A DNA stretch of 64,000 bases from Myxococcota bacterium (lineage in GTDB: Bacteria; Myxococcota_A; UBA9042; PHBI01; JAWLBL01): assembly GCA_041687695.1 (NCBI GenBank), contig JAWLBL010000007.1, forward strand, positions 64,001-128,000, in the 5' to 3' direction. Each line of letters opens with the position of its first letter. Within the stretch, counting starts at the first letter, position 1. This document shows positions 19,166-29,177 of this stretch, one piece after another. The notes beneath the pieces were generated by a model. That model had not been told where the DNA came from, did no database searches, and was given only the letters and a program-made list of their open reading frames with translations. A program made the position numbers and the translations under genes.

Positions 19166-19735
19166 TCAGGGCTCGGAGGCCGCGGGCCAGGCGATGGCGC
19201 CGGCGTGGTCGAGCCACCACAGGATGGCGCACAGCACGACGGCGTTGCGCAGCCCGCCGCTGCGCACCAGATCGCGAACCTCGGCGACCGACAGCAGCAC
19301 GACCTCGATGTCCTCGTCGTCGTCGAGCGCGGTCGGCCCGACCAGGCGACAGCCCTCGGCCAGCAGGGTGTGGCAGGTGTTGTCCTGGTAGGCCGGGTTC
19401 GGGAGTATCCGGCCGATGGGCACCAGCCGCTCGGCCTCGTAGCCGGTCTCCTCGCGCAGCTCGCGCGCGCCCGCGACGAGCGGGTCCTCGCCGTCGTCGA
19501 CGAGGCCGGCCGGGACCTCGAGCTCGAAGTCCCGGGAGCCGTGCCGCCACTGGCGCACCATGACCAGGTGCCCGTCGGGGGTGACCGGGACGACGTTGAC
19601 CCAGTCGGGGCTCTCGAGGACGTAGTAGGGCGCCTCCTTGCCCGTCACCGGGTGCGCCGCGGTGTCGCAGCGCACGTCGAAGATGGGCGTCGGCAGCAGC
19701 GTGCGGGACGAGCGACGTTCGAAGGGCTTGAGCAT
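19166..19735 (-). CDS. NUDIX hydrolase (ADP-ribose pyrophosphatase-like)
   Basis: Nudix box GLVDDGEDPLVAGARELREETG; QWRH; DDDEDIEV. Confidence 0.93.
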   Translation of the reverse strand: MLKPFERRSSRTLLPTPIFDVRCDTAAHPVTGKEAPYYVLESPDWVNVVPVTPDGHLVMVRQWRHGSRDFELEVPAGLVDDGEDPLVAGARELREETGYEAERLVPIGRILPNPAYQDNTCHTLLAEGCRLVGPTALDDDEDIEVVLLSVAEVRDLVRSGGLRNAVVLCAILWWLDHAGAIAWPAASEP

Positions 19736-19771
19736 CGGTGGGGCTCCAGGGGGCCTACTGCGGTGAAGGCG

Positions 19772-20866
19772 TCATAGCGCGGCGCCCGCCGGCTGGCCAC
19801 CACGCCGCTGCTGCGCGTCGCGGGCCCGCTCGATCTTCTCGCGCGCGCGCCGCTCGTCGGTGGCGTCGGGCTCGGGGGGCTCGTGCAGGAGGTGGGCGTC
19901 CGACTCGAGGCTGAGCGTCACGAGGACGGCGAAGTGATCGGAGCCGCAGCGCGGTAGGCGCGCGAGGCCGGCCAGGCGGAAGTGGGGAGAGTGGAAGACG
20001 TGGTCGAGGGGGAAGCGGACGAGGGGGTTGGCGGCGTGGTAGGTGTTGAGCATGCGCCGGCCGCGCCGCGGGTCGAGCAGGCCGCTCATCTTCTGGAAGT
20101 GGCGGGTCGTCTCGGACCAGGCGACGTCGTTCATGTCGCCGGCGACGACCACGGGGCGAGGGCTGTCGACGACCTCGCGCCCGAGGACGAGCAGCTCGGC
20201 GTCGCGCTCGATGGTGTCGGTGTCCTCCTGGGGGGCGGGCGGGCGCGGGTGCATGCAGCTGAGCCGGACGTGCTCGCCGGAGGGCAGGGAGAGCGTCGCG
20301 TGGATCGAGGGGATGTCGGGCTCGACCAGGTAGCGCACCTCGAAGTCGATGAGGCGCAGGCGCGACAGGAGCAGCATCCCGTAGGTGTTGTCCTGCGGCA
20401 CGGAGACGGCGTGCGGGTAGAGGGCTTCGAGCGTCGCCGCCTGCTCGGCCCACCAGGCGTCGACCTCGAGGGCGACGACGCAGTCCGCGCCGGAGCCGGA
20501 CACCATGTCGCGCCAGGCCTGGCCCTCGCGGTTGCGCTGGAGGACGTTGGTGACCAGGACGCGCAGGGTCCGCTCGGGGTGGTCGGCGCGGGCGTCGTGG
20601 ACCTCCTTGGGCCAAAGCCGCGTGTAGGGCAGCATCCGTGCCAGCTGCACGAGCAGGGCGCCGCTCAGCACGGCCAGCGCCACGGCGTCGAGCGGCTCTC
20701 CCGGCCGGCGCGACAGGGCGAGGCCGACGAGGGCCAGCGCGCCGAGCGCCGTGAAGGTCGGGCGCGGGAAGTCGCAGACGCGGATCCACCACGCCTGGTG
20801 GCGCACGATGGGCAGGGCGGTGACCGCCACGACGAGGGCGGCCACGACGAGGGACGCGATACGCAT
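19772..20866 (-). CDS. Membrane-anchored endonuclease/exonuclease/phosphatase family protein
   Basis: TNV, ALE, HPRPP, GDMND, PLDHVF and GSDH motifs; N-terminal TM helices. Confidence 0.9.
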   Translation of the reverse strand: MRIASLVVAALVVAVTALPIVRHQAWWIRVCDFPRPTFTALGALALVGLALSRRPGEPLDAVALAVLSGALLVQLARMLPYTRLWPKEVHDARADHPERTLRVLVTNVLQRNREGQAWRDMVSGSGADCVVALEVDAWWAEQAATLEALYPHAVSVPQDNTYGMLLLSRLRLIDFEVRYLVEPDIPSIHATLSLPSGEHVRLSCMHPRPPAPQEDTDTIERDAELLVLGREVVDSPRPVVVAGDMNDVAWSETTRHFQKMSGLLDPRRGRRMLNTYHAANPLVRFPLDHVFHSPHFRLAGLARLPRCGSDHFAVLVTLSLESDAHLLHEPPEPDATDERRAREKIERARDAQQRRGGQPAGAAL

Positions 20867-21014
20867 CTAAGCTGACTCTGGGTGTTGGGAGGCTGCCCCA
20901 GCGTCGTCGCGGTGACCGCGGACGGCAAGGATGCGCCGCTGGCGGCGCCGGCGGTGACGTGCCAAGCTGCCGCCGGCCGCGAGCGCGCGCGGCCCGAGGA
21001 CCGGAGGAGTCGAG

Positions 21015-21392
21015 ATGGAGCGGAGCGGGTCGACCGAGCGTCCGTGGCTGCTGTGGGACGGCGATTGAGGCTTCTGACGCCGTAGCGCCGCCTGGGTCAG
21101 GCGGACCGACATCGAGGACCGGCTGTGGGTGGTGCCGTACCAGGAGGCGCCGTCGCCGCCCATGACGCCCGAGCTCGCGCGCGCCTGCCGACGTGCCATC
21201 CACGTCCTGCGCGCCGACGGGGCCGTGCTGCGCGCCGGACGCGCCGCCGTGTACGTCTTGGAGGTGCTGGGGTACCGCCGGACGGCCTGGTGCCTGAGGC
21301 GGCGACCGGTCATCTGGGCGGTCGAGCTGGGGTACTGGATCGTCGCGCGCAACCGTCGGCTCTTCTCGCGCGTCGCCTTCAAGCGCGAGTGA
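21015..21392 (+). CDS. DCC/DUF393 thiol-disulfide oxidoreductase, candidate selenoprotein with UxxU motif (125 aa)
   Basis: RBS GGAGGAG at 21003-21009 and ATG at 21015; reads MERSGSTERPWLLWDGD-TGA-GF-TGA-RRSAAWV... in frame with track ORF 21129..21392, which carries the DCC-like GYWIVARNR. Confidence 0.85.
21088..21104 (+). promoter_or_regulatory. Putative bacterial SECIS element
   Basis: Perfect 7-bp stem CCGCCTG/CAGGCGG with a GGT loop, starting 10 nt after the second in-frame TGA. Confidence 0.7.
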
Positions 21393-21405: not shown

Positions 21406-24400
21406 CTAGGGCGCGACGGTGGTCTCGTTGACGGCCCAGGTCCGCCAGCCGTCGCCGAAGAAGGCGCCGGCCGCGGAGTCGTCGAAGTCCATGCCGTCGG
21501 CGGTGGCGGCCCGCATGATGGTCATCGGCTTCAACCCGGGCGCGAGGCCGGCCTTGCCGGCTCCGGGGACCAGGTCGGGCAGGGTCACCGACGTCAGATC
21601 GCCGTCGGCCCAGACCGTCCACTCGGTGTAGGGGATGGTGACGAGCATCCCGCAGATGGTGCACGGCGGGGTCTGGGCGTCGAACGTCACCATCTGTAGA
21701 TCCGGCTCGGCCGAGGGCCTGACCTGCCACGACACGACATCGGAGCCGTGCGGCCCGGGCTGGAACGAGATGTGCTCGGGGATGGCCAGCATGGGCCCGA
21801 GGACCAGCTCGCGAGAGCCCATGGCCCAGACGACGTCGTCGGTGCCCGCCACCGCCAGCAGGGCCCCTCGGTGCTGCTGGGGCGAGCGGTCGCGCCACTT
21901 GCCGGCCTCGAGCTCGATCACCCGGCCGCCGACCCCGACCGCAAAGACCTCGTCAGGCCCGCGGCCCCACACGCCCATCAGGGTCGACGTGGTCGGCGTC
22001 TTCATCACCACCGGGGCCTCGCCGGGGCGCCAGGTCGCGACCGTGCCGGCCTCGCCCACGGCGTACAGGCGGAAGTCCCCCGCGTCCTCGACCCCCCAGA
22101 CGGCGTTGAGCGACGGCTGACCGGGCACGGTCGAGGTCGTCCACTGGGCGCCGTCCCAATGGCCCACCCAGCCCTGGGCTCCGACGACCCACAGGTCGCC
22201 GGTCGCGCCCTCGTCGACGCGTCCCCACACGGCGCGCACCTTCACCGGGGCCGTGAACGCGGTCGCCCAGGTGTCCGCGTGGTAGCGCAGCACGTGATTG
22301 CCGCCGACCGCCCAGGCCTCGTCCGCCGAGGCGACCCACACCCCGGTCAGCGTGATGTCGACTCCGGTCTCGCGCTGCGTCCAGACGGTGTCGCCGAGGT
22401 GCGTCGCGACGCCGCGCTCGCCGGCGGCCACGCCGACTCCGGGCGCGAGCACATGCACCGCGTGCAGGTCGACCTGGGTCCCCGACGGCTGGTGGGCCCA
22501 GTAGCCGTCGCCGATGCTCCGGACGACCAGCCCGCCGTCGCCGACGGCGTAGACGGCGTCACCCGCGCTGGACAGGCCGCGGACGTCCTCGGTCGGCGCG
22601 GGCGCGCTGGCGGTCCAGCCGTCGGGGCCGCGCCGCCAGGCGGTGTCGCTGCGCAGCCGCGGCAGATCGGTGTCCAGGATGGCGCTGTAGGCGTTGGGGG
22701 TCTGCGCCGACTGGACCACCGCGTACAGCGTGTAGGTGGCGTCGTGCAGCGTCCCGGTGAGCTGGCTGGGCACCCGAGCGCTCAGGGGCGCGCGGCCGGT
22801 GGCGAACATGGGCGGGAACTCGAGGACGCCCTCGCCGCCGAGATCGAGGAACAGGCGCGCCTGCACCGACTCGAGCGCCGTCGGACCGAGGTCGGGGCGG
22901 TCGAGCTCTATGGTGACCTGCTCGTTCAGCGGCCGGTCGATGGCGACCTCCATGGTGACCACCTGGCCGTTCGTGGTCGCGCTGAGGCCACGGGTGACGC
23001 CGAGCATCTCGGGGCGGAAGCCCTTGGGCGTCATCACGCCCGCCCAGCAGAAGATCGCGTAGTCGCCCAGGCGCGACGTGAACGTGAACTTGCCATCGGG
23101 GCCGACCGGGACCCCCGGGAAGGGGTAGGCGTCGATGGAGCCGACGCCGGGGTTGGTGATGTCGCAGTAGATCTGAAGGTCTCCCGGCGACGGGACGCAC
23201 TGCAGCGCCGCGACGCCCGTGAGCGGCAGGCAGCTGAAGCCGGTCGGGCAGTCCACGTCCGCCGTGCAGTCGGTGGTGCAGTGCGAGCCCTGGCCGGGCA
23301 GGGACGAGCAGCGGCCGCCGGGGCACTCGTCGTGGTCGTCGCAGCTGAGGCACAGCGGCGAGGGCGGCCCCAGCTGGTCGTCGCAGCGGCCCCAGGGCTT
23401 CTTGACCCCCTTGACGCCGGTGTCCACCACGCCGTCGGACTTGCCGGACTGCCCCGGGGGCTGGTCGCACGGGATGTCCAGATCGGTGCAGTGCGGGATG
23501 GTGTCCACCGCCAGCGTGACGTTGGTCGCGTCGAAGCCGACCAGCGACGAGGTCGTGTGGTTGTGGAGCGTGGCCGAGACCTGCTGGTCGCCGACCAGCT
23601 CGGGGCCGCTGAACGTGATGAGCCCGTCCGCGTTCGTGAAGCCCTGGTGGGGCGTCGACGGGTCGTGGCCCAGCATCACGAAGGCGCCGGCGACCCGCCC
23701 GCCCGAGAAGCGGTCGACCACCGTCACGTGCACGTTGCGGGCGACCGGGCCACCCCAGGTCCCTGGCGCGCTGCCCGGATCGTAATAGGTGAACCCCTTG
23801 GCCAGCTTCGCCGCGGCCGTGTTGGAGGTCAGCACGAGGACGTCGGCGGGGCCCTCGAAGCCGGGCGGCGTCTTCGCCTCGAGGCGCCCCTGCGACAGCA
23901 CCACCGCGTTCGTCGCCGGGGCGTCGCCGACACGCACCTGCGAGCCGGGGAGGAAGCCGTTGCCGAAGACGGTCACGAGGTCGCCGCCGGCGGTGCTGCC
24001 GTGGGGCGGGTCGACGAGCCAGATCGCCGCGGGCGCCTGGTACTGGAAGCCGCCGAAGAGCGTGTCCTGCTGGCCGCCATCGAAGACCGTCACGTTGGCG
24101 AGGCCCGGCGTCCCCGGCGGCGTGGTGATGGTCAGGGTCTGGGCGTCGACGAAGGTGACCTGGGCGGCGAGGGCGCCGACGCGGACTTCGGTGGCGGGCG
24201 TGAAGCCCGCGCCAGAGAGGGTCGCCTGGGTGCCGCCCGCGGCGGGCCCGAAGATCGGCGTGATGTCGTGGAGGCGGGGGGAGGGGAGGTAGGTGTAGGC
24301 CGCGTCCAGGACGCTCGGCTCGCCGCCGCTGCCGACCGAGACCGCGACGGCGCCCTCGGCCAGCGCCGTCGGGGCGGCTACGACGACCGTGTGCGCGTCC

Positions 24401-25521
24401 AGGTCCACCGAGACCAGGGGCGCGACCCGGTCGCCGAACCGGACCTCGACTTCAGCCATGTGGGAGAGCCCGAGGACTCCCAGGGTCACCAGGTTCCCGC
24501 CGCCCATTGGGCCCGAGGCCGGGAAGACGGTCAGCAGCTCGGGCGCGTCGGCCGCCACGTCGTCGAGGTAGGTGTAGGCGCGCTCGGCGGTCTCGCTGCC
24601 CCAGGCCGTGCTGACGACGAGATCCACCGCGCCCGGCTCGGCCGCTGCGGGGGCGAGCACCTCGAGCTCGCCGGGCCCCACGATCTGCACCTCGTCGCAC
24701 TCGCGACCATCCAGGGTCACCAGCAGCGGCGCGACGAACCCTCGCCCGAGCACCGTGACGCGGTTGTCGCCCGCCAGCGGACCGACCGCGGGCTGCACCG
24801 AGACCACGCGCGGCGCCTCGAAGTAGACGTACCCCTCGGCGAGGCGGCCGACCCCGAGGTCGCTCGCCACGCGCACGTCGACGGGGCCCGGCGTCGCCGT
24901 GTCGGGCGTGGTCGCGACGATCGTCTCGCCGTCCAGGACCTCGACGCCGATGGCCAGCCTGTCGCCGAACACGACCCGGGCGCCGGCCGTGAAGCCCGAC
25001 CCGGTGATCGTGACCGTCTCGCCGCCCAGCACGTGGCCCGACGGAGGCGTGACGGCGCCGACCGTGACCGGCTCTTCGAACACGTAGGCTGCGTCCAGGC
25101 GGGCGACCTTGCCGCTCTTGTGCACCACGGTGACGTCGACCACCCCGTGCGGGCGCGGCGGCGTGCTGGCCACGATGAGGCCGTCGGTCAGGGCCAGCCA
25201 GTCGGGCGCGGGCGTCTCGCCGAAGTAGACGACCGCCGTGTCCTTCAACCCCGCGCCGAACAGCGTCACCTCGGTGAAGCCCGCGGTGGGGCCGCGGTCG
25301 GGCGCGAGGCCGGTCAGCACGAAGCCGGACGGCTTGGGGGCGTCCGGGCCGGCGTCGTCGGCGACGTCCGGCGCGCCGGTGTCTGGAGCGTCGACGTCTG
25401 GGTGCGCGTCGCCCTTGGAGGGGGGCGATCCCGCGACCGGGTCGGAGCAGGCCTGAAGGCCGCCGAGCAAGCACGCGAGGACGGCGAGCGCGACGAGGTG
25501 GCGGGTGGAGCGCTGGTTCAC
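21406..25521 (-). CDS. Large lipoprotein with six IPT/TIG domains, a Cys-rich insert and beta-propeller repeats
   Basis: GTG start at 25521 with RBS; lipobox LQAC; six P-x-x-G...GG-x-x-VT repeats; L-x-x-VWG...VG-x-x-G propeller repeats. Confidence 0.88.
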   Translation of the reverse strand: MNQRSTRHLVALAVLACLLGGLQACSDPVAGSPPSKGDAHPDVDAPDTGAPDVADDAGPDAPKPSGFVLTGLAPDRGPTAGFTEVTLFGAGLKDTAVVYFGETPAPDWLALTDGLIVASTPPRPHGVVDVTVVHKSGKVARLDAAYVFEEPVTVGAVTPPSGHVLGGETVTITGSGFTAGARVVFGDRLAIGVEVLDGETIVATTPDTATPGPVDVRVASDLGVGRLAEGYVYFEAPRVVSVQPAVGPLAGDNRVTVLGRGFVAPLLVTLDGRECDEVQIVGPGELEVLAPAAAEPGAVDLVVSTAWGSETAERAYTYLDDVAADAPELLTVFPASGPMGGGNLVTLGVLGLSHMAEVEVRFGDRVAPLVSVDLDAHTVVVAAPTALAEGAVAVSVGSGGEPSVLDAAYTYLPSPRLHDITPIFGPAAGGTQATLSGAGFTPATEVRVGALAAQVTFVDAQTLTITTPPGTPGLANVTVFDGGQQDTLFGGFQYQAPAAIWLVDPPHGSTAGGDLVTVFGNGFLPGSQVRVGDAPATNAVVLSQGRLEAKTPPGFEGPADVLVLTSNTAAAKLAKGFTYYDPGSAPGTWGGPVARNVHVTVVDRFSGGRVAGAFVMLGHDPSTPHQGFTNADGLITFSGPELVGDQQVSATLHNHTTSSLVGFDATNVTLAVDTIPHCTDLDIPCDQPPGQSGKSDGVVDTGVKGVKKPWGRCDDQLGPPSPLCLSCDDHDECPGGRCSSLPGQGSHCTTDCTADVDCPTGFSCLPLTGVAALQCVPSPGDLQIYCDITNPGVGSIDAYPFPGVPVGPDGKFTFTSRLGDYAIFCWAGVMTPKGFRPEMLGVTRGLSATTNGQVVTMEVAIDRPLNEQVTIELDRPDLGPTALESVQARLFLDLGGEGVLEFPPMFATGRAPLSARVPSQLTGTLHDATYTLYAVVQSAQTPNAYSAILDTDLPRLRSDTAWRRGPDGWTASAPAPTEDVRGLSSAGDAVYAVGDGGLVVRSIGDGYWAHQPSGTQVDLHAVHVLAPGVGVAAGERGVATHLGDTVWTQRETGVDITLTGVWVASADEAWAVGGNHVLRYHADTWATAFTAPVKVRAVWGRVDEGATGDLWVVGAQGWVGHWDGAQWTTSTVPGQPSLNAVWGVEDAGDFRLYAVGEAGTVATWRPGEAPVVMKTPTTSTLMGVWGRGPDEVFAVGVGGRVIELEAGKWRDRSPQQHRGALLAVAGTDDVVWAMGSRELVLGPMLAIPEHISFQPGPHGSDVVSWQVRPSAEPDLQMVTFDAQTPPCTICGMLVTIPYTEWTVWADGDLTSVTLPDLVPGAGKAGLAPGLKPMTIMRAATADGMDFDDSAAGAFFGDGWRTWAVNETTVAP

Positions 25522-25829
25522 GGCGTCCTCTCGGGGCGGCGGCGGGAGGGGAGGCCGGCGTCGACGGCGGCCGCTCCGGCGCTGGCGGGCAGGTTCGTTG
25601 TCCGAAGGCGTCCGCGCGATCGTTCGAGCGGTCGAGGTCGGTGGGGTGGCACGAATCCTGCGGGTCGCGCGGGGTCGGCGCAAGGACCTGCGCCCCGTCC
25701 GGGCGGCCCTGTCTGCAGGGACGGGGGCGTTCGGAGTCCAGAACGCGCGCGGCGCGCACGCCGGGTGCGGCCCTGATGCACCCGGTCTCCGCGCCGACGC
25801 GGTCCCGGACGCGCCCCTGCGGGGCCGCG

Positions 25830-29159
<3,330 letters not shown>

Positions 29160-29177
29160 CGTCCGCCCTCCCATCGC

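Follow-up and report, generated by a model that had tools for sequence, protein, structure and literature searches.

The DCC1-like gene and its surroundings

The analyzed window, a stretch of 64,000 nucleotides from a Myxococcota bacterium, harbors on its forward strand a small gene whose features are collected in Table 1. Its start codon lies 5 nt downstream of a Shine-Dalgarno-like motif. From there the frame reads M-E-R-S-G-S-T-E-R-P-W-L-L-W-D-G-D-TGA-G-F-TGA-R-R and continues uninterrupted to the true stop. The original prediction had placed a ribosome binding site, the ATG and two in-frame TGAs here and had joined them in one frame with a shorter ORF; the sequence agrees in all these points. 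It had further proposed that gene callers truncate the gene, and indeed a plain ORF scan shows only the 87-aa tail, to which the NCBI-derived database entry is likewise confined.

Table 1. Features of the DCC1-like locus (positions refer to the window)
Feature	Position	Strand	Evidence
Shine-Dalgarno-like GGAGGAG	21003..21009	+	sequence
CDS, 125-aa DCC1-like protein (PF04134/DUF393), predicted D-G-D-U-G-F-U active site	21015..21392	+	profile match, alignment, model
First in-frame TGA (U18), N-terminal Cys column of DxxCxxC, 26 nt before SECIS loop	21066..21068	+	
Second in-frame TGA (U21), C-terminal Cys column, 17 nt before SECIS loop	21075..21077	+	
Predicted bacterial SECIS hairpin, overlaps the A-A-W-V-R-R codons	21088..21104	+	
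87-aa ORF from GTG 21129, without active site, form given by gene callers	21129..21392	+	
Third conserved cysteine (C58), end of helix 52-58, before strand 63-65	21186..21188	+	
True stop TGA	21390..21392	+	end of CDS 21015..21392

The gene stands alone, since its neighbor on one side is divergent (an endonuclease/exonuclease/phosphatase gene, 19772-20866, reverse strand) and its neighbor on the other side is convergent (a large gene, 21406-26760, reverse strand). Promoter and terminator scans found none. The divergent gene (PF03372) is accompanied by a NUDIX gene (PF00293), both within 19166-20866 on the reverse strand, and these two share no cluster with the neighbors of other Sec-DCC loci. 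On the convergent side, two large, probably secreted proteins are encoded on the reverse strand (21406-26760 and 25830-29174). One of them presumably consists of repeated strand-rich units like IPT/TIG repeats, and the other we take to be Cys/Asp-rich with a vWA-like segment.

Family membership and predicted fold

With selenocysteine (Sec, U) read as Cys, the read-through protein matches the DCC1-like profile PF04134 with 49.6 bits (cut-off 27.8) over profile positions 1-111 of 113, which bears out the DCC/DUF393 identity and the length of 125 aa proposed originally. It is the sole PF04134 match in the host genome. No other Pfam family matches at E-values up to 0.1, PF00578 (AhpC/TSA, Prx-like) included, and no NCBIfam model at E-values up to 1. 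Database proteins named DCC, YuxK or DUF393 share 50-65% identity with it.

An alignment of 81 rows, which took in 80 of 119 Cys-type database homologues, places both TGAs on columns invariant for Cys, exactly where the redox cysteines of DCC proteins had been expected. The columns of residues 15, 18 and 21 are invariantly D, C and C in the 80 Cys-type homologues and read D15-G-D-U18-G-F-U21 here, i.e., the DxxCxxC motif of PF04134 is present with Sec in place of Cys. A further cysteine, C58, is retained by 104 of 122 UxxU proteins (the other 18 have a replacement) and by 132 of 133 CxxC proteins. By analogy to the thioredoxin fold it may face the active site, and it may be a relay or resolving residue.

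The structure model (pLDDT 82) places a strand (11-14) before the motif, followed by a helix (19-31) and further strands; the two Sec residues lie where helix 1 begins. It most closely resembles domains of the thioredoxin, glutaredoxin and GST N-terminal types, and these matches are consistent with a thioredoxin-like fold but weak (lowest Foldseek E-value 0.08; VIA Z-score no higher than 6.6, with an rmsd of 2.8 over 74 residues). In a sequence search of the PDB no solved DCC relative was found, only two spurious microcephalin matches. As modelled, the product would be a small thioredoxin/glutaredoxin-like domain of the DCC1-like family. The protein is probably cytoplasmic, because no export signal is evident when the sequence is read by eye; its hydrophobic C-terminal helices may touch the membrane or a partner.

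Distribution of homologues carrying TGA

Pooling a search of the phylum, a GTDB genome scan and a metagenome scan, we obtained at least 154 distinct Sec-type homologues, namely at least 130 UxxU, at least 13 CxxU and at least 11 UxxC genes. They belong mostly to Myxococcota, but occur also in Chloroflexota, Planctomycetota, Rokubacteria and others. The alternation of TGA and TGY among homologues, suggested earlier as a check, is found exactly at the two motif columns.

The phylum search, covering 401 genomes, delivered 52 matched places in 51 genomes. Twelve of these carry TGA at the motif, ten as UxxU (this gene included) and two as CxxU.

The GTDB genome scan used a pattern which demanded the first TGA and ignored the hairpin described below. 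Among the 119 matches listed, 54 are DCC homologues (49 UxxU and 5 UxxC); here and in the metagenome scan the patterns were narrow and only listed matches enter, the proportions of states thus constitute no census or population frequencies, and related genomes are not independent samples. According to their NCBI labels, the 54 are assigned to Myxococcota (24), Chloroflexota (7) and Thermomicrobiota (1), Pseudomonadota (7, several of which look mislabelled), Planctomycetota (4), Rokubacteria (2) and, with one each, Binatota, Methylomirabilota, Armatimonadota, Cyanobacteriota and Actinomycetota, while four are unlabelled. Six of the 54 genes duplicate genes of the phylum search, which leaves 48 further genomes.

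In the metagenome scan the hairpin was demanded, with mismatches allowed, and both motif codons were left free as TGA or TGY. Among the 121 matches listed, 113 are DCC homologues: 89 UxxU, 11 CxxU, 8 UxxC and 5 CxxC. Chance matches, 65 of the 119 listed in the genome scan and 8 of the 121 listed in the metagenome scan, were dropped at 30 bits. In two UxxU metagenome copies the frame closes prematurely, 59 and 23 codons past the motif, due to a frameshift, an assembly error or decay.

Database records present a different picture. Among the best matches of a search with a RefSeq-genome homologue, 74 of them new, no record contains U and no full-length near-identical record was found; U-bearing records may escape such searches, and an NCBI annotation as selenoprotein may exist all the same. 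Thirteen of the 74 are truncated at the N-terminus and devoid of the motif, and several start at the hairpin-encoded A-W-V-R-R. In a search of sequencing runs, none contained half of the query words, and no RNA run was among those listed. Contigs of four sequencing runs contain only fragments from relatives. One contig of 268 bases spans 21033-21109 and has no listed difference at the TGAs; we do not take it as evidence.

A conserved hairpin downstream of both TGAs

The hairpin in Table 1 has a 7-bp stem closed by a GGU loop (21095-21097) and a folding energy of -11.2 kcal/mol. Like C58, it had been overlooked in the original prediction. According to the legend of Figure 2 in PMC13188914, the bSECIS model comprises a loop of 3-9 nt with a G within its first two positions, a stem of 4-16 bp, a distance of 16-37 nt from the UGA and an MFE of at most -7.5. 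The hairpin agrees with every term of this model, for both TGAs. Judged by folding energy alone, it is unremarkable in this GC-rich DNA (z -0.9 to +0.7); the SECIS assignment rests on comparative evidence.

In gene sets chosen without regard to the hairpin, at least five consecutive pairs are present at the site in 58 of 60 Sec-type genes, but in none of 27 CxxC genes, among them nine from the same subfamily. Along this line, reading the metagenome set by hand showed the stem to be broken in four of the five listed CxxC genes, compared to one of 108 listed Sec-type genes.

Covariation was assessed with the structure drawn from the same sequences: 95.5% of the cells are paired, and 40 two-sided changes stand against 9.1 in shuffles (0/500), while the four covarying pairs do not exceed what shuffles yield (208/500). 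Slid controls pair at 16-40%. RNAalifold, unprompted, proposes this helix and no other. Some of the stem compensations entail amino acid exchanges (Ala to Val, Arg to Lys). At the Arg position of the stem, all 52 genes examined use AGG or AGA, codons that account for 4.8% of the Arg codons of the host. Synonymous sites have diverged less within the hairpin (0.16) than downstream of it (0.57; 17 disjoint pairs), compared with 0.45 and 0.43 in Cys-type controls, which comprise only three pairs.

Genes with a single TGA carry the same hairpin in the same place, in four of four main-clade UxxC genes among the listed genome-scan matches and in both CxxU genes of the phylum search. One SECIS can hence serve either TGA, and by extension it probably serves both codons of the UxxU genes.

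Selection on the frame and selenocysteine machinery

The reading frame is under purifying selection on both sides of the TGAs and between them, with pN/pS values of 0.29 upstream, 0.29 between (31 pairs, in which the pattern had left the codons free) and 0.30 downstream. The two codons between the TGAs keep G-F while their synonymous sites vary freely, which indicates selection at the protein level. No sign of decay is seen in the gene. Of 174 Sec-type loci, 164 offer a start codon ahead of the motif, in frame and with the stretch between them open.

The host encodes SelA, SelB, SelD and tRNA-Sec, the machinery expected for a bacterial selenoprotein, a search for which had been proposed as a check: selA, selB and selD score above their cut-offs, tRNA-Sec reaches 78 bits (RF01852), and the genome is 99.3% complete by markers. 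Each of the 59 additional carriers whose genomes were checked also possesses Sec machinery. In the phylum, selA and tRNA-Sec accompany all 11 non-self TGA carriers, versus selA in 13 of 21 Cys-type carriers. In the 48 further carrier genomes, selA exceeds its cut-off in 45, and the other three have selB and tRNA-Sec. One UxxU carrier genome contains two tRNA-Sec-like matches over the cut-off, the second of which could be a duplicate, a contamination or a SelC*-type tRNA.

Other host genes have comparable signals. The host selD gene (C8:58925) contains an in-frame TGA of its own, followed by a G-first hairpin loop after 17 nt, and fdhA, coding for the formate dehydrogenase alpha subunit (C12:137225), has an in-frame TGA with a G-first hairpin loop at 19 nt. 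A CMD/AhpD-like gene (C16:77595) reads C-R-F-TGA (CxxU), with a SECIS-like G-first hairpin 17 nt downstream, and likely represents a further host selenoprotein. These three are the credible ones among seven candidates of a genome-wide filter for TGA and hairpin, which missed the DCC gene itself and is no census.

Considering frame, hairpin and machinery together, the two in-frame TGAs are almost certainly selenocysteine codons that share one hairpin. The feature is real, and its product is a member of PF04134 and very probably a two-Sec protein.

Proposed mechanism and alternative explanations

The best explanation, and one we hold with high confidence on comparative grounds, is a two-selenocysteine (UxxU) DCC1-like protein made via one SECIS. 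Translation starts at the ATG; SelB-GTP-Sec-tRNA, acting on the single in-frame hairpin, would insert Sec at the first UGA with a spacing of 26 nt, and SelB with the same SECIS would do so again at the second with 17 nt. That Sec is inserted at U18 and U21 alike, with SelB and a single SECIS, we regard as very likely on the comparative evidence.

The protein likely acts as an oxidoreductase of the predicted thioredoxin fold, with a diselenide formed in its catalytic cycle. In the presumed cycle, the U18 selenolate would attack a substrate disulfide or oxidised thiol, and U21 would resolve the intermediate to an intramolecular diselenide. Diselenides are harder to reduce than disulfides, and a low-potential (strong) reductant would reset the diselenide, possibly via the conserved C58. 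This chemistry, proposed by analogy, appears rather more plausible than not.

Membrane-protein thiols are suggested as substrates by domain fusions. One relative was confirmed to combine, in a single protein, an N-terminal Cys-type DCC domain with LMF1 and LMF1_C membrane domains, and the accessible part of a preprint (10.64898/2026.08.19.745780) describes a DCC domain fused to an HTTM domain. By this analogy, a membrane-protein thiol is our best guess. Other long ORFs of ~640-790 aa among the phylum matches resemble the DCC-LMF1 fusion.

The same two-Sec protein could instead bind a metal or Fe-S cluster through UxxU, or sense redox state, without oxidoreductase turnover. Bacterial UxxU proteins catalogued in the accessible literature include the metal-binding NF041115 and FmdB (PMC13188914) as well as Ni-ligating hydrogenases (PMC13582414), and the third conserved Cys and His63 could give additional ligands. 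However, CxxC, UxxC, CxxU and UxxU all interchange within one subfamily, the motif occupies the thioredoxin active-site position in the model, and Arabidopsis DCC1 is said to reduce its partner protein, a complex I subunit (PMC7598583, accessible part). We therefore regard a purely binding or sensing role as unlikely.

A second alternative accepts the recoding, but not its product: one or both UGAs might be read as cysteine by the SECIS-dependent tRNA-ReC (SelC*), giving a CxxC or mixed protein. This tRNA is described as enriched in genomes with UXXU hydrogenases in the accessible text of PMC13582414. The host speaks strongly against it. Among 60 tRNAs, ARAGORN reports one with UCA anticodon (Sec type) and one ordinary 74-nt tRNA-Cys; only one selB passes its cut-off; all ten weaker RF01852 matches are ordinary tRNAs; and a relaxed ARAGORN scan gave noise only. 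With these general models (RF01852 and ARAGORN), no second tRNA-Sec-like tRNA (UCA or GCA) was detected in the 99.3%-complete host, and decoding as cysteine is very improbable here.

Still less credible is that the 87-aa protein is the real product, with the upstream part as a leader peptide, or that TGA is reassigned genome-wide. The truncated forms in databases (13 of 74 new matches without the motif) would fit a short product, but the codon matching the GTG is GTG in only 14 of 130 listed homologues, and 49 of the 130 have a codon able to start translation there or one position away, while an upstream in-frame start is open in nearly all Sec-type loci, as given above. TGA is not reassigned, since it is the main stop of the host (ending 2211 of 2791 long coding ORFs), and tRNA-Trp carries CCA.

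A pseudogene or sequencing error, i.e., two nonsense changes from TGC, would take only one substitution per codon, and TGA is the main stop of the host. The conservation of the feature in several phyla nevertheless refutes this reading in effect: at least 130 distinct genes carry both TGAs, with pN/pS of about 0.3 on both sides and between and with a covarying hairpin, and all 59 other carriers tested have Sec machinery. The TGAs are thus neither unique to this sequence nor associated with decay.

Evolution of Sec and Cys states

A tree of 214 rows and 121 columns, computed by a quick method and weakly rooted, shows Sec and Cys states interleaved. On it, UxxU needs 21 changes, at least five of which are forced by starred branches. 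The Cys forms nest among the Sec forms, and with the weak root gain and loss are not separable. Some reversions are favored because hairpins have decayed in CxxC genes: the five listed metagenome CxxC genes that retain the hairpin sequence include the four with a broken stem mentioned above. Such CxxC genes have probably gone back from Sec to Cys and are losing their SECIS.

A distant DCC clade in Ilumatobacteraceae contains UxxC in 3 of 38 matched genomes (151 searched). These genes have a different, own conserved hairpin, and selA is present. Judging from these sequences, they probably represent a second, independent origin of Sec in DCC.

A joint reading of all these observations can be put forward only tentatively and is, as a whole, somewhat doubtful. 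According to it, the double-Sec form would be usual and ancestral in an uncatalogued bacterial subfamily spanning several phyla, and the Cys forms in databases would be repeated reversions. A single 17-nt SECIS would drive SelB twice within four codons, producing a dedicated diselenide-cycling enzyme with the third cysteine as electron relay. Finally, Sec would have entered DCC at least two times, the second time as UxxC in Ilumatobacteraceae.

Relation to known selenoproteins

Selenoprotein L (SelL), which forms a diselenide, had been cited in the original prediction as the classic case of a rare UxxU motif. The comparison holds as far as the predicted thioredoxin fold and two Sec in a redox motif are concerned, for SelL as for the UxxU Prx-like proteins (PF00578 in PMC13188914; Prx-like 2 in PMC2398784). 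The rarity does not hold to the extent implied: according to the accessible texts, UxxU is also catalogued for Prx-like proteins, metal-binding NF041115 and FmdB (PMC13188914) and occurs in hydrogenases (PMC13582414). SelL and the Prx-like proteins belong to another family, and our protein has no PF00578 match. UxxU is the commonest state among the listed matches of both DCC scans, while the accessible parts of the Prx-like papers present it as a variant beside UxxC (PMC13188914, PMC2398784).

The group 4 [NiFeSe] hydrogenases (PMC13582414, 2026) likewise combine UXXU, CXXU and UXXC in one CXXC motif. For their UXXU form, the accessible text proposes one downstream SECIS for both UGAs, with tRNA-ReC as an alternative. 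They differ in using Sec as a Ni ligand within a large complex, often in the presence of tRNA-ReC, whereas the DCC protein is a stand-alone protein of 125 aa in a host without detected tRNA-ReC. Bacterial UxxC/CxxU proteins of the Trx, Grx, DsbA-like and SelW-like types share the modelled fold class, the Cys-to-Sec swap and the in-frame SECIS geometry with our case, but have one Sec each and belong to other Pfam families in the accessible part of PMC13188914. The closest relatives are Cys-type DCC1-like/DUF393/YuxK proteins (PF04134; Arabidopsis DCC1), with a full-length family match and the DxxCxxC columns in common. In contrast to them, both Cys codons here are TGA with an in-frame SECIS, and the subfamily adds the conserved C58 and a PYQxAPxPPMT motif.

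The 2026 inventory of 119 prokaryotic selenoprotein families (PMC13188914) has no DCC, DUF393 or PF04134 row in its complete table of families. DCC is also absent from the accessible portions of PMC9312934, PMC12013277 (with four supplements) and PMC2398784 and from the main text of bioRxiv 2022.07.06.499078. Altogether, a search of mainly open-access literature gave no report linking Sec with DCC. In our judgment, the selenoprotein version of a known fold combined with a known recoding system is new, but it is not a new kind of system.

The finding adds a family to the bacterial selenoproteome, in carriers that are largely uncultured environmental lineages (Myxococcota, Chloroflexota, Rokubacteria, Planctomycetota) and whose genes of this type are truncated by annotation. 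It offers a natural test case of only 125 aa for whether a single bacterial SECIS is able to specify Sec at a pair of UGAs with a spacing of three codons, and for the role of a catalytic diselenide in a thioredoxin fold. CxxC, UxxC, CxxU and UxxU versions with the same hairpin in one subfamily constitute natural controls. For the poorly characterised DCC family, the Sec forms point to genuine redox chemistry at the motif.

Gene neighborhoods of Sec-DCC loci

Clustering the gene neighborhoods of 83 loci gave no cluster above five loci, and no conserved neighborhood hints at a substrate. An exception is given by a SelW-like Rdx gene (PF10262) of CxxU type directly upstream of a UxxU DCC gene. 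It was present in all eight loci examined from one clade, and forms a two-selenoprotein pair with the DCC gene.
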